Assembly: GCA_022072085.1 (NCBI GenBank)
Contig: JAJVII010000043.1
Coordinates: 446 to 64,445, forward strand
Source: Phycisphaerae bacterium
GTDB taxonomy: Bacteria; Planctomycetota; Phycisphaerae; JAJVII01
Direction of reading: 5' to 3'
Length of the DNA stretch: 64,000 nucleotides
The notes beneath the pieces are model-generated. The model ran no database searches. It was not told the origin of the DNA and saw only the letters and a program-made list of their open reading frames with translations. The translations under genes were made by a program, and so were the position numbers. The first letter of the stretch is position 1; the number at the start of each line of letters is the position of its first letter. Below are positions 6,361 to 50,187 of this stretch, in pieces.

Positions 6361-6364
6361 CTTC

Positions 6365-9976: not shown

Positions 9977-9992
9977 TGGTACGCGGTTTGCT
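9977..9992 (+). promoter_or_regulatory. Sigma-54 (RpoN) -24/-12 promoter TGGTAC-GCGGT-TTGCT
   Basis: GG and GC are separated by the canonical 10 nt. The 16-mer TGGTACGCGGTTTGCT is identical to the one at 26623. It sits 33 bp upstream of the multiheme cytochrome start at 10025. Confidence 0.7.
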
Positions 9993-10024
9993 CTAAAGGA
10001 CACCAAGTCTATTGGGATTGATAT

Positions 10025-11491
10025 ATGGATACCGCGCGCCAACGAAAGTTGGGGCGTGCAGGACTGCTGGTCGCGGTCGGCGGGTTGTGTGTCGCCTGGT
10101 CGGTGGGGCTGGGCGCTTCGCCAACAACGGCGCCGGACGCGGCCAGGAAGCCGGACACCAAGACAGCCACTTGCACCAATCAGACCTGTCACGCCACCCT
10201 GATCTCCCGGAAGGTCACGCACGGGCCGACGGCGCAGAACAAGTGCGACGCCTGCCATGTCTATGACGAACCGCGAGAGCACACGTTCAAACTCTCAGCC
10301 CCGGCCGACAAGCTTTGTGATAATTGTCACACCCTCAAGCAACGTACCGTCGTGCACACCCCGGTGAAGATGGCTCAGTGCACCGGCTGCCACGACCCGC
10401 ACGGCTCGGACAATCGCACGCTGCTCAAGGCCGACCCCACGCGCGGGCTCTGCGAAAGCTGCCACAAGAAGGATGCGTTCATGAACCGCAAGTTCCTGCA
10501 CGGACCGGTGGCAGCCGGCGCGTGCATCCTCTGCCACGAGCCGCATTCCTCGTGGGAGCCCAAGCTGCTGATCAAGCCCAAGGACCAGCTCTGCGTGACC
10601 TGTCACGCCGACGTCGTCAAGAAGGCCGAGGCCGCGCGCTTCGTCCACGAGCCGGTCAAGAAGGACTGCGGCCAGTGCCACGACCCCCACAGCGGCGACG
10701 CGAAGTATCAGCTCAAGGAGGCGCCGCCCAAGCTCTGCCTGGGTTGCCACGCGGATGTCCGCAAGCAACTGACCGACGCCAAGGTGATTCACGGACAGGC
10801 CCCGCCGCAGAAGAACGAGGACGGCATGCCCAAGGTCGACGCCGCCGCCCACCGGGCCCAGGAGGAGGCCTTTGGCTGCCTGGGCTGCCACAGCGCCCAC
10901 GTTTCGACGCTGCCCAAACTCCAGAAAGCCGCCCAGCCGGACCTCTGCCTCTCCTGCCACAACCAGACGCTGATCGCCGCCGACGGCAGCAAGCTGACCA
11001 ACATGGCGGCCCTGCTCAAGGACAACCCCGAGCACCACGGACCCATCCGCGAAGGAAGCTGCACCGCCTGTCACCAGCCGCACGGCGCGGGGACCTTCCG
11101 ACTGCTCTCGCACGAATATCCGCAGCAGTTCTACGCCCCGTTCAAGCTGGAGAGCTACGCCCTCTGCTTCGACTGCCACATCCCCCAACTCGTGCTCGCG
11201 GAGAAGGGAACCGGGCTGACGCGGTTCCGCAACGGCGACATCAACCTGCACTGGCTGCACGTGAACCGCGAGAAGGGCCGCACCTGCCGGGCCTGCCACG
11301 AGGTCCACGCCTCCAAGCGCCCCTTCCACATCCGCGACGCAGTGCCCTTCGGCGACAGCGGCTGGATGCTGGAGATTCGCTTCGAGCAGACCACGACCGG
11401 CGGCAGTTGCGCGCCGGGCTGCCACCAGAAGCGGACGTATGACCGCGGCCAGGAGAACCTGGGTCCCCCCAAGCCGGGAGGTCTGAAATGA
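10025..11491 (+). CDS. Periplasmic multiheme c-type cytochrome (13 CXXCH plus CX3CH/CX4CH variants), doubled-CXXCH (HGP…C..CH) repeat family
   Basis: Signal peptide, then repeated …HGP(V/T)…C..CH units (CDACH, CDNCH, CTGCH, CESCH, CILCH, CVTCH, CGQCH, CLGCH x2, CLSCH, CTACH, CFDCH, CRACH, plus CAPGCH). It is a paralogue of the gene at 17361. ORFs 10295..11425(-) and 10324..11442(+) are frame artefacts. Confidence 0.85.
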   Translation: MDTARQRKLGRAGLLVAVGGLCVAWSVGLGASPTTAPDAARKPDTKTATCTNQTCHATLISRKVTHGPTAQNKCDACHVYDEPREHTFKLSAPADKLCDNCHTLKQRTVVHTPVKMAQCTGCHDPHGSDNRTLLKADPTRGLCESCHKKDAFMNRKFLHGPVAAGACILCHEPHSSWEPKLLIKPKDQLCVTCHADVVKKAEAARFVHEPVKKDCGQCHDPHSGDAKYQLKEAPPKLCLGCHADVRKQLTDAKVIHGQAPPQKNEDGMPKVDAAAHRAQEEAFGCLGCHSAHVSTLPKLQKAAQPDLCLSCHNQTLIAADGSKLTNMAALLKDNPEHHGPIREGSCTACHQPHGAGTFRLLSHEYPQQFYAPFKLESYALCFDCHIPQLVLAEKGTGLTRFRNGDINLHWLHVNREKGRTCRACHEVHASKRPFHIRDAVPFGDSGWMLEIRFEQTTTGGSCAPGCHQKRTYDRGQENLGPPKPGGLK

Positions 11492-12531
11492 GCGCCCACA
11501 GGGTCACCATCCGCCGGCCGCCCGTTGCCGCCTGGGCGACGCTGGCCGCCCTGCTCTGGCTGGCGCTGCCCGCGACGCCGGCCGGCGCGGTCACGCACCT
11601 CAAGCGCGGCGACGCCGCCGATCCCGTCGCCTTGTCCGACCTGGACGGCAAGCAGGTCAGCACCGCCGACCTCAAGGGCCGCACGCTGATCCTGGTCTTC
11701 GGCGAACTGTATCACCCCCGCACGCGCGACCTGTGCACGCAGATCGCAACGATCCTCAAGGACGGGAGGCTGGCCGACCAGAAGATCGCGTCCATCCTCA
11801 TCGTCGCCCAGGACGCCAAGCCCGACGAGCTGAAGGCCGAGATGGGCGACATCCACTGGCCGGCGATCATCCTGCACGACGCCGGCCGAAAGGCCTTTGG
11901 CGATTACCGCGTCGCGGTGCTGCCCAGCCTGGTCGTCGTCGACCCCGAGGGCAAGGTGGTGCACGCGATGGCCGGGCCGGTCGACCGGTTGGCCGACGTG
12001 CTGACCGACGCCCTGCTGCTGTCGGCGGGCAAGCTGAGCGCGGAGCGGTTCGAGCAGACGCTGCACCCCCAGCCGACGACGGCCCCCAGCGAGGAGTCCG
12101 AGCGATCGGAGCGGTTCACGCAACTGGCCCGCCAACTCGCCCGACGCGGTATGGACGACCTGGCGGCCGAGAAGTATGCCGAGGCCCTGAGCCTCGACCC
12201 CGGCCACGAGTCGGCGCACCTGGGCCTGGGCCTGCTGCTGCTGCGGCAGCGTCGGCTGGCGCAGGCCGAGGAACGCTTCCGCCTCGTGCTGTTGAGCGAC
12301 CCGCAGTCGCAGGAGGCGGTGCTGGGGCTGGCCTACGTGCAGACGCTGCGCGGGGGCGCGGAGCTGGCGGCGGCGGAGAAGTCCGTCCGCGACCTGCTGG
12401 CCAAGAGCCCGTCGCAGCCGCGGGCGCATTACCTGCTGGGGCTGATATGCGAGCAGCGCCACCAGACCGACAAGGCGGCTGCCAGTTTCAAGCGGGCAGC
12501 CGAGCTGCTGCTGGAGCGGAGCGAAGAGTGA
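11488..12531 (+). CDS. Secreted thioredoxin-fold (TlpA/AhpC-like) domain protein with C-terminal TPR repeats; lacks a CXXC active site
   Basis: Signal peptide, a thioredoxin-like core (GRTLILVFGELYHP…VLPSLVVVDPEGKVV) with a single Cys instead of CXXC, then TPR-like helices (AEKYAEALSLDPGHESAHLGLGLLL…). Translationally coupled to the upstream cytochrome with a 4-nt overlap. Confidence 0.6.
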   Translation: MSAHRVTIRRPPVAAWATLAALLWLALPATPAGAVTHLKRGDAADPVALSDLDGKQVSTADLKGRTLILVFGELYHPRTRDLCTQIATILKDGRLADQKIASILIVAQDAKPDELKAEMGDIHWPAIILHDAGRKAFGDYRVAVLPSLVVVDPEGKVVHAMAGPVDRLADVLTDALLLSAGKLSAERFEQTLHPQPTTAPSEESERSERFTQLARQLARRGMDDLAAEKYAEALSLDPGHESAHLGLGLLLLRQRRLAQAEERFRLVLLSDPQSQEAVLGLAYVQTLRGGAELAAAEKSVRDLLAKSPSQPRAHYLLGLICEQRHQTDKAAASFKRAAELLLERSEE

Positions 12532-12980
12532 TGAGCGAAACCACGCACGACCCTGCGCCCACGCACGACCGCGATGGACGGCGGACCTTCTGCAAGCTGT
12601 GCATCGGCGGGCTTTCGGTGGCGTCGGCGGCGACGGTGGCCTACCCGGTGGCATCGTTCCTGGGCATGCCGATCACCGTCGGGGCCAACAAGCCCGTAGC
12701 GGTCCCGCTGAGCAGCCTGGCCCCGGGGCAGGCTCACTACGCGGAGTTCCAGGGCCAGCAGATCGTCATCCTGTCGGACGAGGAAGGCCAGCGGGTGTTC
12801 AGCGCGTCCTGTCCGCACCTGGGTTGCAACGTGATGTGGAGCCCGGCTGACGCCCTGTTCCACTGTCCGTGCCACGGGGCGGTGTTCAACTCGCACGGGC
12901 AGGTGGTCAGCGGGCCGGTCAGCGCGTCGCTGAAGAAGGTCCCCTTCGAGGTCAAGAACGGGGTCATCATCGTTTCCTGA
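12531..12980 (+). CDS. Rieske [2Fe-2S] protein of a cytochrome bc-type complex
   Basis: Box I CPHLGC and box II CPCHGA are 19 residues apart, with an N-terminal TM/TAT-like segment. TGATG overlap with the previous gene. The ORF-track entry 11733..12980 is a spurious N-terminal extension in the same frame. Confidence 0.85.
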   Translation: MSETTHDPAPTHDRDGRRTFCKLCIGGLSVASAATVAYPVASFLGMPITVGANKPVAVPLSSLAPGQAHYAEFQGQQIVILSDEEGQRVFSASCPHLGCNVMWSPADALFHCPCHGAVFNSHGQVVSGPVSASLKKVPFEVKNGVIIVS

Positions 12981-12989
12981 GGTGCCTCC

Positions 12990-13649
12990 ATGCGTCTGCT
13001 GGGACGGATATTCGACTGGTTCGACGAGCGGTATGAGCTGACGCCGCTGATCGAGAAGAACGTCACCCACAAGCAGGTGCCGCGGACGCTGGGCTGGAGC
13101 GCCTGCTTCGGCGGGCTGGCCTTCCTCACCTTCCTGGTCCAGGTCTTCACCGGGATGCTCCTGCTGATGTACTACAAGCCGCACCCGTCGGCCGCCTGGG
13201 ACAGCGTGACCTTCATCAAGAGCAACGTGCCGATGGGCTGGCTGGTGCAGCGGATCCACACCGTGGGCGCCAACACGATGATCGTGCTGGTGTTCATGCA
13301 CTTCGCCCGGGTGGCCTACTACAAGATCTTCCGCAAGCCGCGCGAACTGCACTGGATCAGCGGCGTGGTGCTGATGCTCATTACGACGATCATGGCCTTT
13401 ACCGGCTACCTGCTGCCCTGGACGCAACTGAGCTACTGGGGCGCCAAGGTCGGCACCGAAATCCCCGGCGCCGTCCCGTGGATCGGCGAAGGCATCCGCA
13501 ACTGGGTCCGGCGCGGGCCGGCCATCAGCGGCGAAACCCTCGGCTTCTTCTTCTCGCTGCACATCTGGATCCTGCCGGCGGTCGCGGTGGCCTTCATGCT
13601 CATGCACTTCATGATGATCCGGAGGACGGGCATCTCGCGGCCGCTGTGA
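12990..13649 (+). CDS. Cytochrome b, N-terminal half (cytochrome b6-like, 4 TM, bis-His heme ligands)
   Basis: 219 aa with four TM helices, conserved His in helices B and D (…RIHTVGANTMIVLVFMHF…, …FFFSLHIWILPAVAVAFMLMHF…) and a PetB-like length. Confidence 0.85.
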   Translation: MRLLGRIFDWFDERYELTPLIEKNVTHKQVPRTLGWSACFGGLAFLTFLVQVFTGMLLLMYYKPHPSAAWDSVTFIKSNVPMGWLVQRIHTVGANTMIVLVFMHFARVAYYKIFRKPRELHWISGVVLMLITTIMAFTGYLLPWTQLSYWGAKVGTEIPGAVPWIGEGIRNWVRRGPAISGETLGFFFSLHIWILPAVAVAFMLMHFMMIRRTGISRPL

Positions 13650-13848
13650 ACGCGCATAAGAGAACGCAGGGGGGCAGAGAAGGACAGAGGGCGCAGGGAC
13701 GGAATGAACGAAGCGAAGGAAGAGCGAAAGGGACACGGAGAACACGCGGCGGGCAGAAGGAAGATGAGAATCAGGATTTCTCTGCCCGACCTCTGCCTCT
13801 CCGCCCCTCTGCGTTCCTCTTGAACTCGCCCCCAGCCGGGGCGAACGG

Positions 13849-14499
13849 ATGGAGCAGGCCATGGGCGCCGATTACAAGAAGCAATACCGGCCCGACCAGT
13901 TGGAGCCCTTCTGGCCCAACGAGATCATCAAGATGGTCGTCGTCGTGCTCTGCACGCTGGCGGTCATCATGTTCTTTGCCGTCCTGCCGGTGCTGCTGGA
14001 CATGATCGGCGTGCACGGGGCGATGCACGGCGAGGAGCCGGCCAACCCGCAGGGCGCCACGCCCGCCGGCATCAAACCCGAGTGGTACTTCCTGGCCGTC
14101 TACCAGTATCTCCGCCTGATGCCCACCGAACTGTTCGGGATCAGCGGCAAGACGCTGGGCGTGCTCAGCCAGGGGGTGGGCATCGCGGCGGTCGTGCTGC
14201 TGCCGTTCTGGTATCGCCGACGGGCTAGCCGGCGCCCGGGCTGGGTCTATCGGCTGATTGTCACCGCCGGCCTGGTGGGGTTCCTGGTACTGACGATCTG
14301 GGGCGGCTGGCCCGAGACGCAGGGCCCCGACGGCGGCGAGGAACTGATTCCCTTCAAGGACTACCTCCACCAGAAGCCGACCATGTTCATCCTGTTCGGC
14401 GTGGCCCTGGTCGTCTTCTACTTCCTGATCTGGCGCGAGCGGCGGATGATCCGCCAGGTGCTCGACGCCCCCGATCCCGGGGAAGGAGCCGCGCCGTGA
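13849..14499 (+). CDS. Cytochrome b C-terminal half / subunit IV-like (PetD-like, PEWY motif)
   Basis: Three TM helices and a PEWYFL motif (…AGIKPEWYFLAVYQYLR…). An alternative start at 13861 has a GGAG 6 nt upstream. Confidence 0.75.
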   Translation: MEQAMGADYKKQYRPDQLEPFWPNEIIKMVVVVLCTLAVIMFFAVLPVLLDMIGVHGAMHGEEPANPQGATPAGIKPEWYFLAVYQYLRLMPTELFGISGKTLGVLSQGVGIAAVVLLPFWYRRRASRRPGWVYRLIVTAGLVGFLVLTIWGGWPETQGPDGGEELIPFKDYLHQKPTMFILFGVALVVFYFLIWRERRMIRQVLDAPDPGEGAAP

Positions 14500-15431
14500 A
14501 GACTTCGATGATCCGAATGGCTGCGGTCCTGCTGGCCACCGCGCTGGCCGCCCGGACGCCCGCCCTGCGCGCCGCCGACGACGATCCGTTCGCGAACAAC
14601 GCCTGCGTGAACTGCCACCGCGACCTGCCCGGGCGCAGCAGCGAGATCGTCACCCTCGAGTGGAAACAGAGCGTTCACCACGCCGCCGGGGTCGGCTGCG
14701 ACGGCTGCCACGGCGGCGACCCCTCGGTCCGCCGCGACCAGTTCGCCATCGAGGACGACTACAAGCGGGCGGCCCACCTTCAGCGCAATCCTGACTTCCT
14801 GCTGATGCAGGACCGCACCGACCCCTTCGTCGGTCCGGTCCGAGGACGCAAGGTTTCGTACTTCTGCGGCAAGTGCCACGCCGACATCAAGGAGAAGCAT
14901 CTGGGCAGCCCGCACGGCGACTTCGGCGACCCGACCTGTCTCTACTGCCACGGGCAGGGCTCGCACAAGATCACCCACCCGACAGCCGAGGAGATCATCG
15001 ACACGCGGCCCAAGTCCGAGAACGGACGGTGCAGCCCCTGCCACCGGGCCGCAACCATGCAGGCGGTCACTACTATCAAGAAGACGCTGATCGACGCCGA
15101 GGACAGGATCCAGACCTCCGGCAATCTCTACGCGCGACTGGAGAGCTGGGGCTACCAGAACCTGGAGTTGGAGAAGCTGCACCATCACGCCCGGGAGGTC
15201 CGCTCGCAACTGCGGCAGATCTTCCACAGTTTCAACATGAGGGACATTAACAATTTCGCCTCGGAGATCGGCGACGTGGCCGATCGCACGCAGGCGACCT
15301 ATGACCTGGTCAGCAACCTGCGCCGCACCCAGCGTCGCCAGACGGTCGTCGGAGCGTCCGCCGTCGGCATGCTGCTGCTGTTTGCCGGCCTGCTGGTTTA
15401 CTACAAGCGATCGTTCCTGGATGAGCATTAG
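14496..15431 (+). CDS. Pentaheme c-type cytochrome with C-terminal membrane anchor (bc-complex-associated)
   Basis: Signal peptide, then CVNCH, CDGCH, CGKCH, CLYCH and CSPCH, with a C-terminal TM helix (VVGASAVGMLLLFAGLLVYY). ATGA overlap with the preceding gene. Confidence 0.8.
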   Translation: MKTSMIRMAAVLLATALAARTPALRAADDDPFANNACVNCHRDLPGRSSEIVTLEWKQSVHHAAGVGCDGCHGGDPSVRRDQFAIEDDYKRAAHLQRNPDFLLMQDRTDPFVGPVRGRKVSYFCGKCHADIKEKHLGSPHGDFGDPTCLYCHGQGSHKITHPTAEEIIDTRPKSENGRCSPCHRAATMQAVTTIKKTLIDAEDRIQTSGNLYARLESWGYQNLELEKLHHHAREVRSQLRQIFHSFNMRDINNFASEIGDVADRTQATYDLVSNLRRTQRRQTVVGASAVGMLLLFAGLLVYYKRSFLDEH

Positions 15432-15718: not shown

Positions 15719-15734
15719 TTCCCACTTATGGGAA
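15719..15734. promoter_or_regulatory. Perfect 16-bp palindrome TTCCCA-CTTA-TGGGAA; candidate enhancer-binding-protein site (UAS)
   Basis: Exact reverse-complement half-sites with a 4-nt spacer, 50 bp upstream of the -24 element at 15785. Confidence 0.5.
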
Positions 15735-15784
15735 CCGGATGGCATAAGTTCCATCACAATGTGGCCTTACGGGGGTTGACTCGC

Positions 15785-15799
15785 GGCACGCCGTTTGCT
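15785..15799 (+). promoter_or_regulatory. Sigma-54 -24/-12 promoter GGCACG-CCGT-TTGCT
   Basis: Matches the consensus (T)GGCACG-N4-TTGCW with correct GG/GC spacing. Lies ~40 bp upstream of the NapC-like cytochrome start. Confidence 0.7.
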
Positions 15800-15837
15800 T
15801 ACCTGATGGATGATCGACGGGTGTGAAGGAGGTTTCG

Positions 15838-17364
15838 GTGCGCAAGTTGTTCAGATGGTTCTGGGCCAAGCGCCTTCGCCGCTGGGGGCTGATCGCCGGC
15901 GTGGGGCTCGTCCTCCTGTCGGTCGGCACGGTAGAGCTGACCAGCCAGAGCTGGTTCTGCAATTCCTGCCACATCATGAACACCTACTACGCCAGTTGGA
16001 AGACTTCGCCGCACAAGGACGTGGAGTGCATCCGCTGCCACATCGCGCCGGGGATGAACAACTTCGTCTCGGCCAAGCTCAACGGGCTGGGCCAGGTCGT
16101 CGATGACGTCCTGCACCGCACGAGCACCAAGCCCTCGGCGTCGGTGAGCGACATGAGCTGCACCCGCGCCGGCTGCCACGAGCAGGCGGTCGTCCAGGCC
16201 AATGACTACACCGCCGTGACAGCCGCCGCCATGTCGGCGACACAGACCCCGCCACGTGCCTACTTCTTCGACCACAGCAAGCACCTGGGGCGCGAGTATC
16301 GGGGCATCAGCATCCACTGCTCGACCTGCCACTCGCACGTCCAGGGCGACCAGCACTTCGAGGTGAACACCAACGTCTGCGTCACCTGCCACCTGTTCAG
16401 CGGGCCGGGCACGGCGCCCCAGTGGTCGGCCCCGGTGCTGTCGGTCACGACGACCCGGCCCGACGCCGCCCCCAGCAGCCAGGCCGAGCAGATCACCGGC
16501 TCGACGGTCGCCTCCCCCGACCAGGCCGTCGCCGCCCCGTCGCGCTGCAAGAACTGCCACGAGCCGCCCAAGCAACCGGTGAACTACCACGGGCTTCAGG
16601 TCATCCACGACGAGTATCTGGCCTACGGAGCGGCCTGCGAAAGCTGCCATCGCAACGTGACGGCCGCGTTCGCCACGATCGGCGACACCCAGTGCTACGC
16701 CTGTCACGACTTCGGCGCCGAGCGGATCGGCGACATCGAGGACCTCCACCGCGTCCACACCGTCGGCGAGCACAAGGTCGAGTGCTTCAGTTGCCACGGG
16801 CTGACGGCCCACGGGCCCAAGGCGGCCGCCTCGGCGCTCCAGCTCGAGCAGCTCACCTGCGGCGCCTGCCACAAGGGCCAGCACCAGATCCAGCAGACGA
16901 CTTACAAGCCCGGCGTCGAGCCGACGCCGACCCAGCCCGAGCAGGGCCACGCCCAACCCGAGCAGTCGGTCGCGGTCTCGCCGATGTTCATGGCCCACGT
17001 CGACTGCACCGGATGCCACGTCAGGCAGCAGCCGCTGGAATTCAAGCCCGACACCGGCGCGACTGTCGCGATGGCCGCGCCGCAGGCCTGCGACGCCTGC
17101 CACAAGCCCGGACTGGGCGCGTCGCAGATCGCCCTGTGGCAGAAGGCCACCAAGGCGCTCTACGAGCAGGCGGCCGCCCTGCTGCCGGCAACGCCGCCGG
17201 CGCCGGGCAGCGAGTCGGCCCGGCTGGTCGCCGAGGCCCGCAAGCTGCTGGACCTCGTGCGGCTGGACGGCTCGTGGGGCGTTCACAATCCGAAGTACAC
17301 CGAGAGCCTGCTGCTGGAGGCGATCGCCAAGCTCCGGCAGGCGTCGGCGGGAGGTGGTTCATGA
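15838..17364 (+). CDS. NapC/NirT/NrfH-family membrane-anchored multiheme cytochrome c, extended (11 CXXCH + 1 CX4CH); putative quinol dehydrogenase
   Basis: N-terminal TM helix immediately followed by CNSCH…CIRCH, the NapC/NrfH hallmark, then 9 more heme motifs. GTG start at 15838 is preceded by AAGGAGG at -6; the ORF-track start 15823 is 5 codons upstream. Confidence 0.8.
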   Translation: MRKLFRWFWAKRLRRWGLIAGVGLVLLSVGTVELTSQSWFCNSCHIMNTYYASWKTSPHKDVECIRCHIAPGMNNFVSAKLNGLGQVVDDVLHRTSTKPSASVSDMSCTRAGCHEQAVVQANDYTAVTAAAMSATQTPPRAYFFDHSKHLGREYRGISIHCSTCHSHVQGDQHFEVNTNVCVTCHLFSGPGTAPQWSAPVLSVTTTRPDAAPSSQAEQITGSTVASPDQAVAAPSRCKNCHEPPKQPVNYHGLQVIHDEYLAYGAACESCHRNVTAAFATIGDTQCYACHDFGAERIGDIEDLHRVHTVGEHKVECFSCHGLTAHGPKAAASALQLEQLTCGACHKGQHQIQQTTYKPGVEPTPTQPEQGHAQPEQSVAVSPMFMAHVDCTGCHVRQQPLEFKPDTGATVAMAAPQACDACHKPGLGASQIALWQKATKALYEQAAALLPATPPAPGSESARLVAEARKLLDLVRLDGSWGVHNPKYTESLLLEAIAKLRQASAGGGS

Positions 17365-18857: not shown

Positions 18858-19915
18858 ACTCGAAGGAGTCTGCCATGATCTCGCATCCCGTTCGACTCCG
18901 CCTCACGCCGACGCTCGCCCTGGCGTTGCTGGCCGGGCTGAGCTTCTGGCCCACCGGCGCCGTCGGCGACGATCAGCCCACCACCGCCGCCGACGACGCT
19001 CAGTGGTCAGCCAAGGACCTCGACGGCAACGCCGTCCAACTGGGCGACCCGGCCAAGCCGACCGTGCTGCTGTTCCTCATGTCGGGCCAGCCGCAGAGCG
19101 CCGACGCCCTCAAACGCGTCACCGCGTCAGTCAAGGCCCACCCCGGCGTGGACGCCGTCGCCATCGTCAGCGCCGACAAGGCCGCCGACTACGCCGCCAA
19201 GATCAAGGCCGACTGGCCCGGAAAGGTCGCCCTGGACGCCGACTACGCGCTGGCCGGTCGGTGCAACGTGCACGTCTGGCCGACCACGGTCATCCGCGTG
19301 CCCGGCGGAAAGCAACTCGCCCACATGGGCGGACTGCCCGCGTCGCTGGACAACCAGGTGGGGGCCTGGCTGGACTTCGCGACCGGCGCGATCGACGAGG
19401 CCGCGCTCAAGCGTCGGCTCAGCGGGCAGGAGGTCGTCGAGGACAACCCCGCGCAGATGGCGGCGCGGCACCTGGCGGCTGCCGACCGGCTGCTGGACAA
19501 GGGGCTGGTCGCCCAGGCGCGCGACGAGTTGGAGCGCGGGCTGAAGATCAGGCCCGCCGACAGCGCCCTCCAGCTTGCGATGGCCCGCGTGCTGCTGCTG
19601 ATGGACCAGCCGGCCGACGCGATGGCCCTGCTGGACCGGATCGACGCCTCCTCCGTCCCGCCGTGGAAGCTGGACGTGGTGCGAGGCCGGGCCCTGATGG
19701 CGATGGAGAAATGGGACCAGGCCTCGGCGGTGCTGGTCCGGGCGGTGAAGCTGAACCCCGAGCCGTCGGAGGCCTACTACGCGCTGGGCCAAATCTACGA
19801 ACACGCCCTGGACTACCGCCAGGCGGCGACGGCCTACAGGGCGGCGTTCGAGAACAGCCCCACGGGGAGGAAGCTGACGATTTCCCCGATTCCGACGACG
19901 CAGCCGGGGGAGTGA
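18854..19915 (+). CDS. Secreted thioredoxin-fold + TPR protein, paralogue of 11488..12531 (no Cys in the Trx-like core)
   Basis: ATGA overlap with the cytochrome. Same domain order as the paralogue (Trx-like core PTVLLFLMSG…VWPTTVIRVPGGKQ, then TPR helices). ORF-track 17732..19915 is an extension. Confidence 0.6.
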   Translation: MNSKESAMISHPVRLRLTPTLALALLAGLSFWPTGAVGDDQPTTAADDAQWSAKDLDGNAVQLGDPAKPTVLLFLMSGQPQSADALKRVTASVKAHPGVDAVAIVSADKAADYAAKIKADWPGKVALDADYALAGRCNVHVWPTTVIRVPGGKQLAHMGGLPASLDNQVGAWLDFATGAIDEAALKRRLSGQEVVEDNPAQMAARHLAAADRLLDKGLVAQARDELERGLKIRPADSALQLAMARVLLLMDQPADAMALLDRIDASSVPPWKLDVVRGRALMAMEKWDQASAVLVRAVKLNPEPSEAYYALGQIYEHALDYRQAATAYRAAFENSPTGRKLTISPIPTTQPGE

Positions 19916-20044
19916 AACAGTTGGCAGGCCAGGACGCCTGAAGGAGCCGCGCGGGGCGAGCCGCCGCGGTTCCTTGCATTCCGGGCGCGGCGACCTTGCC
20001 CGCGACGGCACGTTGGAGTATGACAGCAGCGAGGGTTCCACCGG

Positions 20045-23238: not shown

Positions 23239-23239
23239 G

Positions 23240-24310
23240 ATGAACGCAACGAGAGTCGGACAACGCGCCCGGCGGCGCGGAGCGATCCGGATAACGCTGC
23301 TGGCGGCGGCGCTGCTGGCCGTCGCCGGGACGTCGGGCGGCTGCAAGCCCAACGAGCCGCCGCAGATTCTCCGCACCTGGCCCGCGACCGGCACGCCGCG
23401 AATCGTCCTGCGCAAGGTCATCCACGGAGCCCAGGACGTCGAGCCGCAGACCGGGCTGGCGGCGTTCATCCGCAATCTGGCCGGCCCGACCAAACAGGTC
23501 ATCCGCCGCCCGCAGGGCATCGCCGTGGACGACCGCCGGCGGCTGTTCGTCGTCGACCAGGAGAACCAGGGCGTTCACGTCCTGGACCTGGACAAGGGCG
23601 AGGTGCATTTCATCGACCGGGCCGGCAAGACGGCGTTCGTTTCGCCGGTGGCGGCCGCCTGGTGCGACGGCAAGCTGGCCGTCTCCGACAACGCCCTCAA
23701 GCAGGTCTTCTGGCTGGACGCCTCCGGCAAGCTGCTGGGGACGGTGAACGCGCCGGGCGGGTGGCGTCGGCCGACCGGACTGGCGTGGGATTCGACGTCG
23801 CACGAGCTTTACGTCGTCGACACGGTCACCGACGAGGTGCTGGTGTTCGGCGGCGACGGGCAACTGGTGCGGAAGTTCGGCCAGCCGGGGACCGGCCCGG
23901 GCCAGTTCAACGCCCCGACGCACCTGTCCGTCGCGCCCGGCGGGCCGGTGCTGGTGGCCGACTCGCTGAACTACCGCATCCAGCTTCTGGACCGCACGGG
24001 CAAGCCGCTGCTGGCGATCGGCAAGCAGGGCGACGCCAGCGGGCACATGGGCCTGCCCAAGGGCGTGGGCATCGACGCGCTGGGCCATCTCTACGTGGCC
24101 GACTCGGGCCTGGCGGCGGTGCAGATATTCGATCAGAAGGGCGACCTGCTGCTGGGCGTCGGCGAGCGAGGCAGCGGCGTGGGGGAGTTTGAAATCCCCA
24201 CGGGAATGGCTGTGCGCGGTAACATGATCTATGTCAGCGACTACTTCCTCAGTCGCGTCCTGGTGTTCGAATACGTGGGCGGGGAGGATGACCATGAACA
24301 GGCTCAGTAA
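23240..24310 (+). CDS. NHL-repeat beta-propeller lipoprotein
   Basis: Lipobox (AGTSGGC), then six NHL-like blades (…LYVADS…, …PTGLAWD…, …PTHLSVAPGGPVLVADSLNYRIQLLD…). Confidence 0.75.
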   Translation: MNATRVGQRARRRGAIRITLLAAALLAVAGTSGGCKPNEPPQILRTWPATGTPRIVLRKVIHGAQDVEPQTGLAAFIRNLAGPTKQVIRRPQGIAVDDRRRLFVVDQENQGVHVLDLDKGEVHFIDRAGKTAFVSPVAAAWCDGKLAVSDNALKQVFWLDASGKLLGTVNAPGGWRRPTGLAWDSTSHELYVVDTVTDEVLVFGGDGQLVRKFGQPGTGPGQFNAPTHLSVAPGGPVLVADSLNYRIQLLDRTGKPLLAIGKQGDASGHMGLPKGVGIDALGHLYVADSGLAAVQIFDQKGDLLLGVGERGSGVGEFEIPTGMAVRGNMIYVSDYFLSRVLVFEYVGGEDDHEQAQ

Positions 24311-25985
24311 TTTCGACTTCAGCGTCCGGATCGCGGCCTGGGCGATCTGCCTGCTGCTGCCGACGGCCCTGTCGGCGCAGGACTTCAGCAAGGTGGCCAA
24401 CACCAAGCACAACCTGACGGCCAGCGGACCCGGTCCAATCAAGGTGGCCGGCGCCGGCGAGGTCTGCTACTTCTGCCACACGCCGCACTCAGCCAACCCG
24501 ATCGCGCCGCTGTGGAACCGCCAGACCAACGGCCAATACTACGACGTCTACGGCAGTTCGACGATGAAGGCCGAAGTGCCCCAGCCGACCGGCTCGTCGC
24601 GGCTCTGCCTGAGCTGCCACGACGGGACCATCGCCCTGACGCAGACCTACAACCCGCGGGTCTCGTTCCAGGGGACGATCTACATCACCCCGCAGGACTC
24701 GGGCTATCTGGGCACGGACCTGCGCGACGACCACCCGATCAGCTTCGTCTACGACCAGGGGCTGACTACGCGCGATCCGCAGCTCCGTGACCCGCTCACG
24801 CTGCCCAAGCAGCTCCCCCTGGACGCCGAGAGCCGCGTCCAGTGCACCACCTGCCACGACGCCCACGACGACAGCCTGGGCTTCTTCCTGCGCATGGACA
24901 ACCGCGAGTCGGCCATGTGCGTGAGCTGCCACAACGTCACCGGCTGGACCGCCTCGGTCCACGCGACCTCGGGGCAGGCCGTCCCCGCCGGCAGCGGCAA
25001 GTGGGGCAACCTCACCTACGGCACCGTGCGCGAACTGGCCTGCGAAGCCTGCCACCGCCCCCACACTGCCGGCGGACGCGCCCGGCTGCTTCGCTACCAA
25101 GCCGAAGAGGACAACTGCCTGGACTGCCACGACGGCTCGGTCGCCACCAAGAACGTCTCAAGCGAGCTGACCAAATTCGGCTCGCACCGCGTCAGCCAAT
25201 ACATCAACATCCACGATCCGGCCGAGGATCCGGCGACGATGTCCGAGCACGTCGAATGCGCCGACTGCCACAACCCCCACCAGATGACGGCCACGGGCTC
25301 GGCGTCCGCGCCCAACATCAAGCCCACGATGAAGGGGGCCTCCGGATACACGCGCTTCGGCGCCTCCGTCTCGCCGGCCAACTACGAGTACGAGGTCTGC
25401 TACAAGTGCCACGCCGTGCGCAACCCGGCGACGCCGGTGGTTGACCGCGTCGATCACGACAACAACATCGCCAACGAACTGGACCCCGGCAACGTGAGCT
25501 ATCACCCCGTCGTCGCCCAGGGCCGCAACTCCAGCGTGCCCAGCCTCATCCTTCCCTGGCGGACCACGAGCATGGTCTACTGCACCGACTGCCACGGCAG
25601 CGACGGCAACACGGTCAAGGGCCCCCACGGCTCGGCTTTCTCTCCCCTGCTGGTCAAGAACTACGACTACCACGACCCCTCCAGCGAGTCGCCGCAGGCC
25701 TACGCCCTGTGCTACACCTGTCACAACCGCGACAGCATCCTGGCCAACCAGAGCTTCTCCGAGCACAACCGGCACGTTGCCGAGAAGAAGACCTCCTGCG
25801 CGATCTGCCACGACCCGCATGGCTCGCGGACCAACAAGTTCATGATCAACTTCGACCGCACCGTCGTCACCGCGACCTCCGGCGGCCAGGGACCGACCTA
25901 CACCAGCACGGGCTTGCGCAGCGGCACCTGCACCCTGCGCTGCCACAACGTCGATCACAACAACAAGGCCTACCCCGATCACTGA
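24294..25985 (+). CDS. Secreted multiheme c-type cytochrome (11 CXXCH + CX3CH), candidate extracellular or outer-surface cytochrome
   Basis: Signal peptide (…LLLPTALSAQD), then CYFCH, CLSCH, CTTCH, CVSCH, CEACH, CLDCH, CADCH, CYKCH, CTDCH, CYTCH, CAICH and CTLRCH. GGGAGG lies 7 nt upstream of ATG 24294, which overlaps the NHL gene by 17 nt. Confidence 0.8.
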   Translation: MNRLSNFDFSVRIAAWAICLLLPTALSAQDFSKVANTKHNLTASGPGPIKVAGAGEVCYFCHTPHSANPIAPLWNRQTNGQYYDVYGSSTMKAEVPQPTGSSRLCLSCHDGTIALTQTYNPRVSFQGTIYITPQDSGYLGTDLRDDHPISFVYDQGLTTRDPQLRDPLTLPKQLPLDAESRVQCTTCHDAHDDSLGFFLRMDNRESAMCVSCHNVTGWTASVHATSGQAVPAGSGKWGNLTYGTVRELACEACHRPHTAGGRARLLRYQAEEDNCLDCHDGSVATKNVSSELTKFGSHRVSQYINIHDPAEDPATMSEHVECADCHNPHQMTATGSASAPNIKPTMKGASGYTRFGASVSPANYEYEVCYKCHAVRNPATPVVDRVDHDNNIANELDPGNVSYHPVVAQGRNSSVPSLILPWRTTSMVYCTDCHGSDGNTVKGPHGSAFSPLLVKNYDYHDPSSESPQAYALCYTCHNRDSILANQSFSEHNRHVAEKKTSCAICHDPHGSRTNKFMINFDRTVVTATSGGQGPTYTSTGLRSGTCTLRCHNVDHNNKAYPDH

Positions 25986-26470
25986 CGCCGGGTCGCCGCG
26001 GCAAGGCCCTGATGACATCGCAGTCGCACTTTGCCCCCGGAGCGAGGCTGCATAGCGGGGTCTTCAGAACCTGCCGATCCGTTCCCGCGATGGGTTCCTG
26101 GGATGTCGCCAATCTCGAAATTGGGACAGGGGGAACTGGGTTTGGTGGATGCAAAGAAGGCAGAATGTAAAAATAGGGAATCCTGACAGCCTGGCCGTTG
26201 CCTGTTCGCATCCTCGCCCGTTGTCTGGCTGACGCATATCACCCAATTCGGGCAATTCTCCCCGGCGCCGTTTTCGTGATGTTCACGCCACGCATCATCG
26301 CCCCGATTAGCCGGTAATCATCCCCGCAACGCCCTCAGACCCCCATCGGCTGCCGGGATGCCTCGGATCGCCCTGAGCAGCCGGGCAAACCGCACCGCGT
26401 AAGCTCCATTACAGATTTGGACGCCTCGGCCCTTTCGCTCGCGGACGCTGGGCGTGGCCGACTGTCTGAA

Positions 26471-26484
26471 TCCCATTTTTGGGA
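26471..26484. promoter_or_regulatory. Palindrome TCCCA-TTTT-TGGGA; candidate UAS for the sigma-54 promoter at 26623
   Basis: Same half-sites and N4 spacing as 15719-15734, ~140 bp upstream of the -24 element. Confidence 0.45.
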
Positions 26485-26622
26485 CGGGTCGGAGGCGGGG
26501 AAAACCAATTTCGGAAAAGGTCGCGTGAAGCTGGGAAGACCTTGTCGGACATGCCTGTGGGCAAGTGTTCAAAGGGGCTCAGTTTGTGGCTTTTTCGGGG
26601 AAATCTACCCGAAAACGGCCTC

Positions 26623-26638
26623 TGGTACGCGGTTTGCT
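26623..26638 (+). promoter_or_regulatory. Sigma-54 -24/-12 promoter TGGTAC-GCGGT-TTGCT (identical 16-mer to 9977)
   Basis: Exact 16/16 identity with the promoter at 9977, 145 bp upstream of the first tetraheme gene. Confidence 0.75.
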
Positions 26639-26783
26639 ACATACTCCTTGTAGATCGGGGAAACGCCCCCTCCGATCAGGAGACTGACAGATGATGATGC
26701 GACCGGCTGAATATCGCAGGACCCGCGTGGGTGGCGGCGGCCAGGTTCATCAGGGCAACGGTCAGCCAACTAGGAGGTGTCTT

Positions 26784-27437
26784 GTGAGACATGTTGCCGG
26801 ACACGTATTGACTGGGCTGGCGTTCGTCGGGGTTATGGTGTGGGCCGCCCAGGCCCAGGCCCACCCGTCGACGTGCAGCAACTGTCACACGCCCCACAGC
26901 TCGGTCGACCCCAACAGTGATACGGACTACGGGGTTCCGCTGTGGAGCACGAAGTGGAACAGCGACGGCCTGCCGACGTTCACGGTCTACACCAGCCCGC
27001 TGTTCGACGCGTTGGGAACCGACATCGGCCAGCCCGACGGGCCGAGCAAGCTCTGCCTGGGATGCCACGACGGCAGCTACATCAGCTCCAAGACCGGCAA
27101 CCCGATGGGCACGACGCACAGCTTCAACCCCGGCGGCGGCTCGCTCGCCCAGGGCCAGATGACCCTGACCGAGTCGCACCCGATCAGCTTCACCTACGCG
27201 ACCGCCTACAACAATCCGAACCTGCATGTGCCCGGTTCGCTGAAGGATCCTTCCTCGCCCAGCGGACTGCCGACCGGCGGCACGATCGCCAGCGACCTGC
27301 TGGACAGCAAGGGCAAGGTGCAGTGCACCAGCTGCCATGACGTTCACAACGCCAGCGCCGTGGGCGATCCGAACCTCCGCTTCGACTACGAGGCCGATCA
27401 CGGCAAGACCATGTGCCGGGCCTGCCACAACAAGTAA
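26784..27437 (+). CDS. Small secreted tetraheme c-type cytochrome (paralogue 1)
   Basis: GTG start preceded by AGGAGGTGTCTT. Signal peptide, then CSNCH, CLGCH, CTSCH and CRACH. ORF-track 26691 is an upstream extension. ORF 26676..27428(-) is antisense. Confidence 0.75.
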   Translation: MRHVAGHVLTGLAFVGVMVWAAQAQAHPSTCSNCHTPHSSVDPNSDTDYGVPLWSTKWNSDGLPTFTVYTSPLFDALGTDIGQPDGPSKLCLGCHDGSYISSKTGNPMGTTHSFNPGGGSLAQGQMTLTESHPISFTYATAYNNPNLHVPGSLKDPSSPSGLPTGGTIASDLLDSKGKVQCTSCHDVHNASAVGDPNLRFDYEADHGKTMCRACHNK

Positions 27438-27583
27438 TCGACGCCCAGGGTTCTTAACCGCCGGCCTCGGCCGGCCGACATGGAGAGATGACGATGAACC
27501 TGGTTGAAAACAAGACGGCCAACATGGAAGGCAGCAGCCAGGCTCATCTGATCCGCGAAATGACTTTGAACAGGAGGTGTCTT

Positions 27584-28210
27584 GTGAGACACGTTGCCGG
27601 ATACGTAGTGATCGGATTGGCGGTTCTGGCTGTCGTGATGCAGCCCGCCCCGGTCCTGGCGGCTCATAGCGACTACGGGTGCGCCGGGTGCCACACCCCG
27701 CACTATGCGACCAAGGCCAATGACGCCGAAGGAACCTGGGGCGTCCCGCTGTGGAACAACGTGAACCTGAACGACCAGGCCCTGCCCACGTTCACGCTCT
27801 ACAACAGCCCGACCTTCGACGTTCTGGACACCCAGATCACCCAGCCCGACGGGCCGAGCAAGCTCTGCCTGGGTTGCCATGACGGGACCTACTCCTACAT
27901 GTCGACCGAGCACAGCTTCGGCGCCGGCGGCGGGATGAGCCTGGAAACGTCACACCCCATCAGCTTCGTCTACAGCGACGCGCTGGCCAGCGATCCCAAG
28001 CTCCAGCACGCCGGCGAGCTGAAGCCGCCGTCCACGACGGCCAGCGGGCTGACCGCCAGCGGCACCATCGCGACCGACATGCTCGACGCCAAGAGCAAGA
28101 TGCAGTGCACCAGTTGCCATGACGTGCACACCAGCGGCATCGGTGAGACCCTGCTCCGCAAGAGTTACACCGACGGCAAAACGCTGTGCGTCACCTGCCA
28201 CAACAAGTGA
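27584..28210 (+). CDS. Small secreted tetraheme c-type cytochrome (paralogue 2)
   Basis: Near-identical translation-initiation context (CAGGAGGTGTCTTGTGAGACACGTTGCCGGATAC). Signal peptide, then CAGCH, CLGCH, CTSCH and CVTCH. Confidence 0.75.
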   Translation: MRHVAGYVVIGLAVLAVVMQPAPVLAAHSDYGCAGCHTPHYATKANDAEGTWGVPLWNNVNLNDQALPTFTLYNSPTFDVLDTQITQPDGPSKLCLGCHDGTYSYMSTEHSFGAGGGMSLETSHPISFVYSDALASDPKLQHAGELKPPSTTASGLTASGTIATDMLDAKSKMQCTSCHDVHTSGIGETLLRKSYTDGKTLCVTCHNK

Positions 28211-28251
28211 CAGTGATCGGCAGGCGACCTGACTCGCACCCTTGATCCCCC

Positions 28252-28290
28252 GGGCCGCAGGCGGTCACCCCGCCTGCGGCCCTCTTCTTT
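28252..28290 (+). terminator. Rho-independent terminator (GGGCCGCAGGCGG-tcacc-CCGCCTGCGGCCC followed by TCTTCTTT)
   Basis: A 13-bp perfect GC-rich stem and 5-nt loop with a T-rich tract, 42 nt after the stop of the second tetraheme gene. Confidence 0.7.
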
Positions 28291-28474
28291 GAACGCCCGC
28301 GCGGATAGCCGCCAGGGCGCCAAGGAAGCGCCAAGGGAAGATCGGAAGAGAGAGGAGGGGAATTCAGAGTCGGGCCCGGACTCTTCCTCCCGGCGACTTG
28401 GCGGTTGTCTTCTCATGGCTGCGCCTTGGCAACGCGTCGGGGCAGAATACAATGAAAGGCCCAGGAGGTATGCG

Positions 28475-29623
28475 ATGAGCCGATTCGCGACACCCGTGAC
28501 GGTCCTGGTTCTGACGCTGGCCGCCGCCGCGCTGCTGCCGCTGGCCGGCTGCGAGAAGCCGGAGGAGTCCGGTCCGGCCAAGCTCGTCTTCTATCCCACG
28601 CCGCCCGACCCGCCGCGCTACCAGTTCCTGACCAGCTTCTCGGACATCCAGGAGTGGATCAAGCCCACCCAGACCAGCCTGAAGGACTGGATCGTCGGCG
28701 GACCCACCGAATCCGAGCAGGCGATCAGCAAGATCAAAAACCCCTACGGCGTCGCCTGCCACCAGGGCAAGCTCTACATCTGCGACCTGGGGTTGACGCG
28801 GCTGGACGTGATCGACCTGGTCAAGGGGACCTACACGACGCTGGGCGACAAGCGGACGCTGCCCGACCCGATGAGCATCGAGATCACGCCTGACGGCACG
28901 AAATACGTCTGCGACAAGGCGCTCAAGCAGATCGTCGTCTTCGACGCCAACGACCAGTTCGTCTCGGCCCTGGGCGACCCGAAGGCCTGCACCCCGTCGG
29001 ACGTGGCCGTCGGCGCTGACGAACTCTACGTCGTTGACCAGCTCGGCGCGAAAGTCCAGGTCTGGTCGCGCGACGGCCAACTCAAGCGCGTCATCGGCGG
29101 GGTGGACAAGAACAGCGGCCAACTCATCAAGCCCGTGAGCATTGTGCTCGGCCAGGACAACCAGCTCTTCGTCTCGGACATGATCGCCAACACGATCTTC
29201 GTCTTCGACACCCAGGGCAAGTATCTCCGCAAGATCGGCGCGCCCGGCGACACGACCGGCCACTTCGCCCGCATCAAGGGGATGTGCCTGGACCCGGCCG
29301 GCCGACTCTATGTCGCCGACTCGACCTGGGACACGCTCCAGATCTTCACCCAGGACGGCCAGTTGCTGCTGGCGATCCGCGACCTGACCGAGACCCCGCA
29401 CCAGATGACCCAGCCGACCTGGGTGGCCGCCGACGGCTCCCCGGCCACCATGGAAGTGTTCAGGAAATACGCCGCCCCAGGCTTCGACCCGCAGTTCGTC
29501 GTCTTCGTCTCCAACGAGTTCGGCAAGAACAAGATCACCGTGCTGGCCTACGGCGAAGGCCGACTGCAAGCCGTCCCGGTCCCCGCGGCTGCCCCGACCA
29601 CGCAGCCGGCATCGGCCGACTGA
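28475..29623 (+). CDS. NHL-repeat / beta-propeller lipoprotein
   Basis: AGGAGG lies 6 nt upstream of ATG 28475. Lipobox LAGC. Repeated …LYV(C/A)D… and …QL(F/Y)V(S/V)D… blade motifs. ORF-track 28289 is an extension. Confidence 0.7.
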   Translation: MSRFATPVTVLVLTLAAAALLPLAGCEKPEESGPAKLVFYPTPPDPPRYQFLTSFSDIQEWIKPTQTSLKDWIVGGPTESEQAISKIKNPYGVACHQGKLYICDLGLTRLDVIDLVKGTYTTLGDKRTLPDPMSIEITPDGTKYVCDKALKQIVVFDANDQFVSALGDPKACTPSDVAVGADELYVVDQLGAKVQVWSRDGQLKRVIGGVDKNSGQLIKPVSIVLGQDNQLFVSDMIANTIFVFDTQGKYLRKIGAPGDTTGHFARIKGMCLDPAGRLYVADSTWDTLQIFTQDGQLLLAIRDLTETPHQMTQPTWVAADGSPATMEVFRKYAAPGFDPQFVVFVSNEFGKNKITVLAYGEGRLQAVPVPAAAPTTQPASAD

Positions 29624-29796
29624 ACGCTCTTTCTTCTCCGCCGAGCCGCCAGCGGAAGCTGGCGGGTATCTCACGCGCCGAAGAGAACCGCCAAGGCGCC
29701 AAGGGAAGACGCCAAGGGCGCCAAGCGGGGAAGAGTTTCAACGCCACAGATGGGGCAGGCAGGAGGCGCTGGGCATGTCACCTGCTGGGACCGCTT

Positions 29797-29912
29797 GCAT
29801 TTCTCATTGATCATTGCTCATTTCACATTGAGGGATTGCAGACGCCGACAGCAGCCCGCGCAACCTCTTCAATCTGCAATGTGAAATGAGCAATGATCAA
29901 TGTTCAATTCTC
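29797..29912. repeat. Low-GC element with a perfect 26-bp inverted repeat (CATTGATCATTGCTCATTTCACATTG / CAATGTGAAATGAGCAATGATCAATG) separated by 46 bp
   Basis: Arms at 29805-29830 and 29877-29902 are exact reverse complements. The AT-rich composition contrasts with the 68% GC background. Confidence 0.6.
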
Positions 29913-29996
29913 CCCAGTGCGTCAGGATGACCTTCCGAGCCGATCCGCTGCCTCAAATCGCCCTTCCCGGGTCTAGGATGCTCGGGCGCGGGGGCT

Positions 29997-30012
29997 GTCT
30001 CAGGGGTGAGAC
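29997..30012. promoter_or_regulatory. Perfect palindrome GTCTCA-GGGG-TGAGAC, candidate regulator site upstream of the ccm sigma-54 promoter
   Basis: 16-bp palindrome with an N4 spacer, ~105 bp upstream of the -24 element at 30117. Confidence 0.4.
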
Positions 30013-30116
30013 TGCGGGGGAAAGCGGGGCAAGAAGATGCTGGACCGCCAACACATAAAACACTATCATTACATAGGTTAAGAAATCTCCGTCGAGCCCG
30101 TCGAAAACCCTGTGAT

Positions 30117-30132
30117 TGGCATGCCGCTTGCA
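30117..30132 (+). promoter_or_regulatory. Sigma-54 -24/-12 promoter TGGCAT-GCCGC-TTGCA
   Basis: Textbook TGGCAY-N5-TTGCW match, 42 bp upstream of the ccmE start. Confidence 0.75.
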
Positions 30133-50185: not shown

Positions 50186-50187
50186 GG

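Follow-up and report, generated by a model that had tools for sequence, protein, structure and literature searches.

A predicted, conserved sigma-54 regulon of multihaem cytochrome and cytochrome maturation genes in a Phycisphaerae bacterium

A 64,000-nucleotide stretch of contig JAJVII010000043.1 from a Phycisphaerae bacterium (GenBank assembly GCA_022072085.1), referred to here as the window, contains an island of multihaem cytochrome operons and cytochrome c maturation (ccm) genes preceded by -24/-12 elements that match the sigma-54 promoter consensus. Judged from the sequence and its comparison with related loci, these elements are probably genuine sigma-54 promoters, and together they would form a conserved enhancer-dependent regulon. 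An excess of strong sites over chance, their placement, their conservation, a complete activator gene nearby, conserved synteny and a palindrome shared by the promoters all support the original prediction, made from the sequence of the window, that the electron-transfer island is expressed in an enhancer-dependent and signal-gated manner.

Four of the elements had been described in that prediction, two of them as one 16-mer repeated verbatim. The 16-mer TGGTACGCGGTTTGCT was found exactly twice in the window, at 9977-9992 and 26623-26638 (+), and had no match in 100 shuffled sequences. The elements GGCACGCCGTTTGCT at 15785-15799 and TGGCATGCCGCTTGCA at 30117-30132 were also present as described; the base before the former is C, giving a -24 element that reads CGGCAC. 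The four precede the genes to which they had been assigned, namely the cytochrome gene at 10025 (cytA, operon 1), the NapC-like gene at 15838 (operon 2), the tetrahaem cytochrome genes at 26691 and 27488 (operon 3) and ccmE at 30174. Two perfect-consensus sites had been missed, TGGCACGCGGTTTGCA at 3287-3302 (-) and TGGCACGCCGTTTGCT at 3530-3545 (+), which flank the promoter region of an NtrC-type activator operon. A supposed weaker copy at 37881 (37879-37895, +) was rejected as a member of the system; its position weight matrix (PWM) score is 3.5, indistinguishable from chance, and 68 plus-strand positions in the window score at least 5, which places it in the background noise.

To quantify the excess of sites, the window (62-75% G+C per 2-kb interval, mostly 65-72%, and on average about 68%) was scanned for the strict consensus TGGCAC-N5-TTGCW with up to one or up to two mismatches, and the counts were compared with those in 100 shuffles. 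Six sites had at most one mismatch, compared with 1.9 expected, and none of the 100 shuffles reached six. All six have the GG-N10-GC geometry. When two mismatches were allowed the consensus was not enriched in the window (22 sites, 27 expected), and only the strong sites are therefore informative. A 17-nt PWM, with its background taken from 200 Markov simulations of the window, gave top scores of 18.5 (3529, +), 18.4 (30116, +), 17.3 (26622, +), 17.2 (3287, -) and 15.8 (9976, +), followed by 12.9 (29770, +) and 12.6 (15783, +); all sites with lower scores fall inside genes. Five sites scored 15 or more, compared with 0.55 per simulation (maximum 3), and four scored 17 or more, compared with 0.095. 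Within the window, with genes called from third-position G+C, Pfam and NCBIfam, all seven sites scoring at least 12.5 are intergenic, although intergenic DNA makes up only 10% of the sequence.

In the 17-nt frame of the matrix, the predicted promoters are CTGGCACGCCGTTTGCT for the activator and sensor operon (3529-3545, +; perfect consensus), GTGGCACGCGGTTTGCA for the divergent transcript (3287-3303, -; perfect consensus), the sites at 9976-9992 (+) for the cytA operon and 26622-26638 (+) for the tetrahaem operon, GCGGCACGCCGTTTGCT for the NapC-like operon (15783-15799, +) and TTGGCATGCCGCTTGCA for the ccm operon (30116-30132, +). All genes between 3.6 and 46 kb lie on the plus strand, and in each of the five protein-coding units a distance of 32-52 nt separates the end of the promoter from the same-strand start codon: 3545 is followed by the ATG at 3591 (45 nt, with the ribosome-binding site aaggag), 9992 by the start at 10025, 15799 by the GTG at 15838, 26638 by the start at 26691, and 30132 by the true ccmE start, the ATG at 30174 (41 nt). 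The sequences flanking the two identical 16-mers differ, and identity is confined to the core element. This rules out a repeat or duplicated segment as their source, and the identity appears to reflect selection on the promoter core rather than duplication. The site at 29770 was set aside, as related loci gave it no support. It adjoins a near-perfect, AT-rich long inverted repeat at 29797-29905 (tgcatttctcattgatcattgctcatttcacattgag ... ctgcaatgtgaaatgagcaatgatcaatg). The repeat precedes the ccmE palindromes described below, in the intergenic gap that separates an NHL propeller gene from ccmE.

The island also encodes a candidate regulator. As predicted, an NtrC-family activator and kinase partners are present between 3.6 and 9.1 kb: a complete activator gene at 3591-5132 (+) is followed by three sensor genes at 5219-9056. 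The activator is a response-regulator enhancer-binding protein with a REC domain, an AAA+ sigma-54 interaction domain and a Fis-type HTH (Pfam Response_reg, 2e-32; Sigma54_activat, 7e-67; HTH_8, 1e-12), and its sequence contains the GAFTGA motif and the Walker A motif GESGTGKE. Its NCBIfam matches are to generic AtoC-, NtrC- and ZraR-like models, all below the equivalog cut-offs. The sensor genes, all on the plus strand, encode a PhnD-like periplasmic binding protein (5219-6235; Pfam and NCBIfam), a membrane protein of 4-helix-bundle (4HB)/HAMP/HisKA type that lacks an ATPase domain (6365-7390), and lastly a histidine kinase (7707-9056) with end-to-end but weak, below-cut-off similarity to the RegB/ActS redox-kinase model. 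The promoter at 3529 would imply that the activator and sensor operon is autoregulated. We speculate that the signal may be an oxyanion, since the binding protein is PhnD-like, or the redox state of the quinone pool, since the kinase is weakly RegB-like.

Conservation was investigated in 80 metagenomic loci fetched with homologues of the 13-haem cytochrome CytA, and in four independent orthologous loci for ccmE (L164, L166, L168 and L170). The cultured relative Fontivita pretiosa (L082) retains the full gene order, from the activator through the binding protein, HAMP protein, kinase, 13-haem cytochrome, TlpA/TPR protein, Rieske protein, cytochrome b and pentahaem cytochrome to the NapC-like gene. 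A metagenome-assembled genome from ENA (L083) retains this order from the binding protein onward, but the 10 kb fetched upstream contain no activator gene. The activators of Fontivita and the window share 78% identity, and orthologues with 65% identity adjoin the same cytochrome gene, cytA, in three further loci (L089, L092 and L110). The C-terminal HTH region is well conserved among these orthologues. A contig scan with the activator protein yielded only generic NtrC-family matches, of at most 46% identity.

The promoters are conserved along with the genes. In each cytA locus the scan began 300 nt upstream of the gene and ended where the homology starts. Among loci with cytA identity of at least 48%, a same-strand sigma-54 site scoring at least 11 was found in 12 of 20, and one scoring at least 13 in 9 of 20; the more distant loci had a site of at least 11 in only 2 of 61. 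Over all cytA upstream regions, 14 sites scored at least 11 compared with 2.3 expected from a background of 0.068 per kb (Poisson p of about 1e-7), a conservative value because the background includes other true sites. Sites were also found in the NapC region in both relatives available for comparison (Fontivita, CTGGCACGGCTCATGCG, score 12.5; L083, score 10.7). For ccmE, all four independent relatives have a sigma-54 site 36-40 nt before the ATG. The closest of them, with 63% CcmE identity (L164), has CTGGCATGCCGATTGCT with a PWM score of 17.0, 36 nt before the ATG, and the other three have CTGGCACC(N4)CTTGTC, with a perfect -24 element, 38-40 nt before the ATG. Sigma-54 sites precede the tetrahaem operon in seven further loci. 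In three of these, the ccmE relatives L166, L168 and L170, the homologous tetrahaem/NHL operon runs divergently from ccmE and has a site of its own (12.1-14.3); in the remaining four (L095, L149, L151 and L159) the scores are 13.2-17.0. Most of the high-scoring sites across the related loci stand before genes for cytochromes, sensors or activators.

These data bear on whether the matches could be coincidental, or could belong to some other conserved element (a repeat, for example, or the site of a repressor), with the operons transcribed from sigma-70-type promoters. Such an explanation could draw on the lack of enrichment at two mismatches and on a weak sigma-70-like match before ccmE, described below. 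A scan found no sigma-70-like consensus upstream of operons 1-3, a null result that proves little, as planctomycete housekeeping promoters are poorly defined. The explanation would nevertheless have to account for strong sites at 9-40 times the simulated frequency, all intergenic and correctly oriented; for the preservation of GG-N10-GC and of the distance to the start codon where the surrounding sequence has diverged; for a 16-mer identity that stops at its flanks; and for a GAFTGA activator encoded alongside. We therefore regard coincidence as very improbable.

Alignment of orthologous upstream regions revealed a 16-bp dyad, TTCYC-N6-GRGAA, located 55-155 nt upstream of the promoters. Of 19 orthologous promoters, 13 have a dyad with at most one mismatch in the 200 nt upstream (8 of them perfect copies), compared with 3% of control windows. 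In a set that had not been used to derive it, a perfect copy was present 86-131 nt upstream of four of five tetrahaem promoters, compared with 0.8% of control windows; by our own arithmetic, the probability of this is roughly 2e-8. Two earlier guesses at an enhancer sequence showed no enrichment and had been dropped, TCCCA-N4-TGGGA (3 occurrences window-wide, 2.1 expected) and TGGGAAC (5 occurrences, 6.1 expected).

In the window itself, dyads with no more than one mismatch occur upstream of three promoter regions, at 3410, 9912 and 15719, compared with 1% of control windows. The first (3410-3425, TTCCCGCAAACAGGAA; one mismatch) lies about 120 nt from both of the divergent promoters. The second (9912-9927, TTCTTGATTATGGGAA; one mismatch) lies 64 nt before the -24 element of the cytA promoter and is accompanied by a weaker copy at 9882-9897 (TTCCTGATTATAGGAG); upstream of cytA, Fontivita has GTCCCGCAAACGGGAA. 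The third (15719-15734, TTCCCACTTATGGGAA) is a perfect copy, again 64 nt before the -24 element, and the sequence TTATGGGAACCG is common to the cytA and NapC promoters at identical spacing. Equivalents of the NapC-region dyad have no mismatch in Fontivita and one in L083. Pairs of a dyad and a sigma-54 site adjoin sensor and activator genes in two related loci (L091 and L092), an arrangement that fits autoregulation; in L110 a perfect dyad lies beside such genes, with no site above threshold.

The copies at the remaining promoters are weaker. A dyad at 26470-26485 (ATCCCATTTTTGGGAC), 152 nt before the -24 element of the tetrahaem promoter, has two mismatches, both at outer positions. Two tandem dyads, 33 nt apart, precede ccmE within 29964-30012 (TTCCCGGGTCTAGGAT at 29964 and GTCTCAGGGGTGAGAC at 29997), 152 and 119 nt before the -24 element. 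Dyads with up to two mismatches are not enriched in the window (49 found, 58 expected), and therefore only copies with no more than one mismatch, or those conserved in position, carry weight. The tetrahaem and ccmE copies are supported by the second of these, as their position is conserved in relatives; for ccmE, all five loci (the window, L164, L166, L168 and L170) have tandem dyads, placed 151-155 and 119-121 nt before the -24 element.

A further question is whether a single activator serves all of the promoters. The promoters could be real without forming one regulon, if other enhancer-binding proteins drove the tetrahaem and ccm operons and the neighbouring activator acted only on its own, the cytA and the NapC-like operons. 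The division between dyads with at most one mismatch (3410, 9912 and 15719) and those with two (26470, 29964 and 29997) follows exactly this line, the spacing to the -24 element differs (64 nt compared with 119-152 nt), and no activator gene was found within the 4 kb fetched on each side of the ccm genes in L166, L168 and L170. Against this division, the half-site consensus TYCYC/GRGRR is common to all of the promoters, perfect copies of the same palindrome stand at orthologous tetrahaem promoters, the ccmE orthologue in L168 has two copies with one mismatch each, and the sigma-54 cores are nearly identical in all units. Separate activators thus seem unlikely to us, and we infer that the neighbouring activator binds the palindrome and may be assigned to every promoter.

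Several observations weigh against a single conserved sigma-54 regulon. The PWM is our own approximation of the published consensus YTGGCACGrNNNTTGCW. The dyad was read by eye from the same set of 19 promoters in which it was counted, which inflates its p-value there, and the two-mismatch tetrahaem and ccmE dyads of the window are not significant when taken alone (12% of control windows). Three of the ccmE orthologues (L166, L168 and L170) have TTGT rather than TTGC at -12 and reach PWM scores of just 7.6-9.2. Fontivita has only a weak site at cytA (TTGGTCTGTTCTTTGCG, 11.9), and nothing scoring 7.5 or more was found before its activator gene. The gene for sigma-54, rpoN, is not in the 64-kb window; its presence in the organism is suggested by the GAFTGA activator and by the Phycisphaerae entries of a sigma-54 survey cited below. 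Finally, a sigma-70-like match, TGGACC-17-TATCAT (9 of 12 positions), lies at 30041-30069, just upstream of the sigma-54 site of ccmE.

The last of these raises the possibility that the sigma-54 promoters are only conditional boosters and that the ccm genes, since c-type cytochromes are always needed, are expressed constitutively from another promoter. The hexamer pair at 30041-30069 would be one candidate, and internal promoters could sit in the 165-183 nt gaps that precede ccmB and ccmC. Sigma-70-like matches of this quality occur at the chance rate, however (2 found, 1.0 expected), and the alignment of the five ccmE loci conserves the palindromes and the -24/-12 element rather than the hexamer pair. 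Constitutive ccm expression with sigma-54 boosting is thus an explanation that we keep in view but do not favour.

At the ccmE promoter, the tandem dyads are separated from the -24 element by an AT-rich block (30040-30100), which has equivalents in L164, L166, L168 and L170. It suggests a DNA-bending site; as the E. coli IHF consensus had no match, this is a compositional observation only. Elsewhere in the window, an imperfect 24-nt inverted repeat of GGGGTCGG-like units follows the kinase gene (9737-9806); it precedes the cytA promoter by about 170 nt and probably serves as a terminator or is a REP-like element.

If the elements act together as the comparison suggests, sigma-54 RNA polymerase would bind the TGGYAYGCSGYTTGCW elements as a closed complex. 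The adjacent sensor module, consisting of the PhnD-like protein, the HAMP protein and the weakly RegB-like kinase, would phosphorylate the NtrC-type activator, which would bind TTCYC-N6-GRGAA 55-155 nt upstream and use ATP to open the promoter. At least six target units are predicted: the activator operon, the divergent non-coding transcript, operon 1 (Rieske/cytochrome b and multihaem cytochromes), operon 2 (NapC-like, multihaem and NHL proteins), operon 3 (tetrahaem cytochromes and NHL protein) and the ccm operon. One signal could in this way jointly induce apocytochromes, quinol-oxidising modules, an electron conduit and the System I machinery for haem attachment. That transcription is initiated by sigma-54 at these sites is likewise what we infer.

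The genes of the predicted units are as follows. Operon 1 (10025-15431, +) encodes CytA, a 13-CXXCH cytochrome of the Paired_CXXCH type (10025-11491; 100% identical to NCBI protein BIFFINMI_03132), a TlpA-type thioredoxin/CcmH-TPR protein, a Rieske protein, a cytochrome b split into N- and C-terminal parts, and a pentahaem cytochrome. The second gene (11488-12531, +) fuses a TlpA/AhpC-type thioredoxin to a CcmH/CycH-type TPR domain, is kept in Fontivita, and supplies a maturation accessory from outside the ccm cluster. Operon 2 (15838-25985, +) encodes a NapC/NirT-like 11-haem protein, the product of a small open reading frame (ORF), a TPR protein, a 10-haem cytochrome, a protein without assigned function, an NHL propeller protein and an 11-haem cytochrome with an MtrC domain. 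Operon 3 (26691-29623, +) contains two genes for 4-CXXCH (tetrahaem) cytochromes, at 26691 and 27488, and one for an NHL propeller protein. A strong 13-bp hairpin with 12 G-C pairs and a T-rich tail (28252-28282, +) follows the second tetrahaem gene, ahead of the NHL gene. It may act as an internal terminator or attenuator and so determine how much cytochrome is made relative to propeller protein.

From 30174 onward, a run of same-strand genes (+), of which the promoter at 30116 may transcribe all or only part, comprises ccmE, ccmF, two genes without assigned function, ccmA, ccmB, ccmC and ccmD, and continues to 46099 (+) with genes for an 8-haem cytochrome, a CbcL-like fusion, a further unassigned protein, an NHL protein and a large multihaem cytochrome. 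The System I components CcmE, CcmF, CcmA, CcmB and CcmC were identified by Pfam, and a CcmD-like ORF of 38 amino acids at 37761-37877 from the sequence. Models for CcmG and CcmH (Pfam and NCBIfam) had no match within the ccm cluster. The two ORFs between ccmF and ccmA (32982-35208, +; 394 and 345 amino acids) have no match among Pfam or NCBIfam families; at the equivalent position, L166, L168 and L170 also have unannotated ORFs. The two ORFs may encode divergent CcmH/I-like components. Further along the run, the protein encoded at 39147-41144 (+) joins a multihaem c-type domain (6 CXXCH and 2 longer-spaced motifs) to a b561/Ni_hydr_CYTB membrane domain, an architecture that we take to be that of Geobacter CbcL. 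The island would then hold three putative quinol-oxidising modules, the CbcL-like protein, the Rieske/b complex and the NapC-like protein. Downstream of the island, a minus-strand cluster at 47203-54366, unrelated to the regulon, encodes three HlyD-family membrane-fusion proteins, one with a PqqD-like domain and one with a GAF domain, and a SecA-like ATPase of only 679 amino acids.

The divergent promoter at 3287 (-) faces about 600 nt with no coding-like ORF, upstream of 2-oxoacid:ferredoxin oxidoreductase genes (2674 to 3). The non-coding stretch ends in a 12-bp GC-rich hairpin followed by a U-run near 2987-2935 (-). A 347-nt RNA extending from 3276 to 2930 (-) has a predicted fold of -165 kcal/mol, with z = -3.96 relative to shuffled sequences. 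No Rfam family matched the divergent transcript or any other part of the window. The region 2930-3303 (-) is thus a candidate for a sigma-54-dependent structured small RNA, or for the leader of the 2-oxoacid:ferredoxin oxidoreductase genes. The corresponding promoter of Fontivita, also divergent, instead serves a YgbA_NO gene and a radical-SAM/SPASM gene.

The closest functional analogue of the system is BccR-cbcBA of Geobacter sulfurreducens, which works alike but does not include it as a member. BccR (GSU0598) is a response-regulator sigma-54 activator encoded next to cbcBA, the operon of a quinol-oxidising inner-membrane cytochrome complex, and required for its induction at low redox potential. 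In both systems such an activator adjoins a bc-type or multihaem quinol-oxidising operon with a -24/-12 promoter. Geobacter belongs to another phylum, and its targets are a thiosulfate-reductase-like cytochrome b with two haems (CbcB) and a cytochrome c with 7 haems (CbcA), whereas operon 1 encodes 13-haem and 5-haem cytochromes together with a Rieske protein and a split cytochrome b of the b6 type. The regulon of the window is apparently wider, as it also takes in the NapC-like operon, the tetrahaem/NHL operon and the ccm genes. Moreover, the activator of the window shares an operon with a three-gene sensor, while BccR stands alone and is divergently encoded.

The classical NtrC/NtrB system at glnAp2 offers a second comparison. 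Both systems have the -24 GG/-12 GC core, tandem dyads about 100-150 nt upstream, a REC-AAA+-HTH activator with GAFTGA and, as predicted for the window, an autoregulated regulator operon. NtrC sites have the form TGCACC-N5-GGTGCA, and the palindrome TTCYC-N6-GRGAA is unlike them. The targets in the window are respiratory genes rather than those of nitrogen assimilation, a periplasmic binding protein and a separate HAMP protein form part of the sensor, and there is no E. coli-type IHF consensus.

For the Geobacter sulfurreducens RpoN regulon, in a phylum other than that of the window, Leang et al. (2009) give the predicted promoter consensus TTGGCACGGTTTTTGCT, which is close to the elements described here, and cytochromes of electron transfer were reported among the members; 'ccm' does not occur in the main text of that paper. 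A cross-phylum survey (PLoS One 2025) found predicted sigma-54 promoters and self-regulated NtrC-family (ZraR-like) regulators in Planctomycetota, including some Phycisphaerae. The word 'cytochrome' is absent from its main text, and neither respiratory or ccm targets nor the enhancer palindrome are reported there. Francke et al. (2011) mention neither Planctomycetes nor cytochromes. The statement in the original prediction that sigma-54 control of ccm genes is unusual agrees with the survey and with literature searches that gave no precedent, although such absence is not proof.

The regulation proposed here is of a known kind. Its moderate interest lies in its conservation in a poorly known class, in the newly defined enhancer dyad and in the inclusion of ccm. 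This last suggests enhancer gating of cytochrome c maturation itself, for which we found no precedent in the searchable literature; if the ccm genes are indeed under enhancer control, almost no c-type cytochromes would be made until the signal is received. More tentatively still, a single two-component system might serve a whole clade of Phycisphaerae as the master switch for anaerobic or extracellular respiration, co-inducing the three kinds of quinol-oxidising module, the NHL/multihaem conduit, System I, and a structured small RNA of about 340 nt that may couple the island to expression of 2-oxoacid:ferredoxin oxidoreductase.

Although sediments, soils and bog lakes hold Phycisphaerae in abundance, hardly any have been cultured and next to nothing is known of how they respire. 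Cis-elements as precise as these (a core promoter, a palindrome and fixed spacings) would make genes of multihaem respiration predictable from sequence alone, and the ligand of the candidate sensor would point to the electron acceptor. Fontivita pretiosa, which is cultured and has the same gene order, provides a testable relative. The paradigm of Geobacter BccR, in which sigma-54 gates a respiratory branch, would thereby be extended to another phylum.

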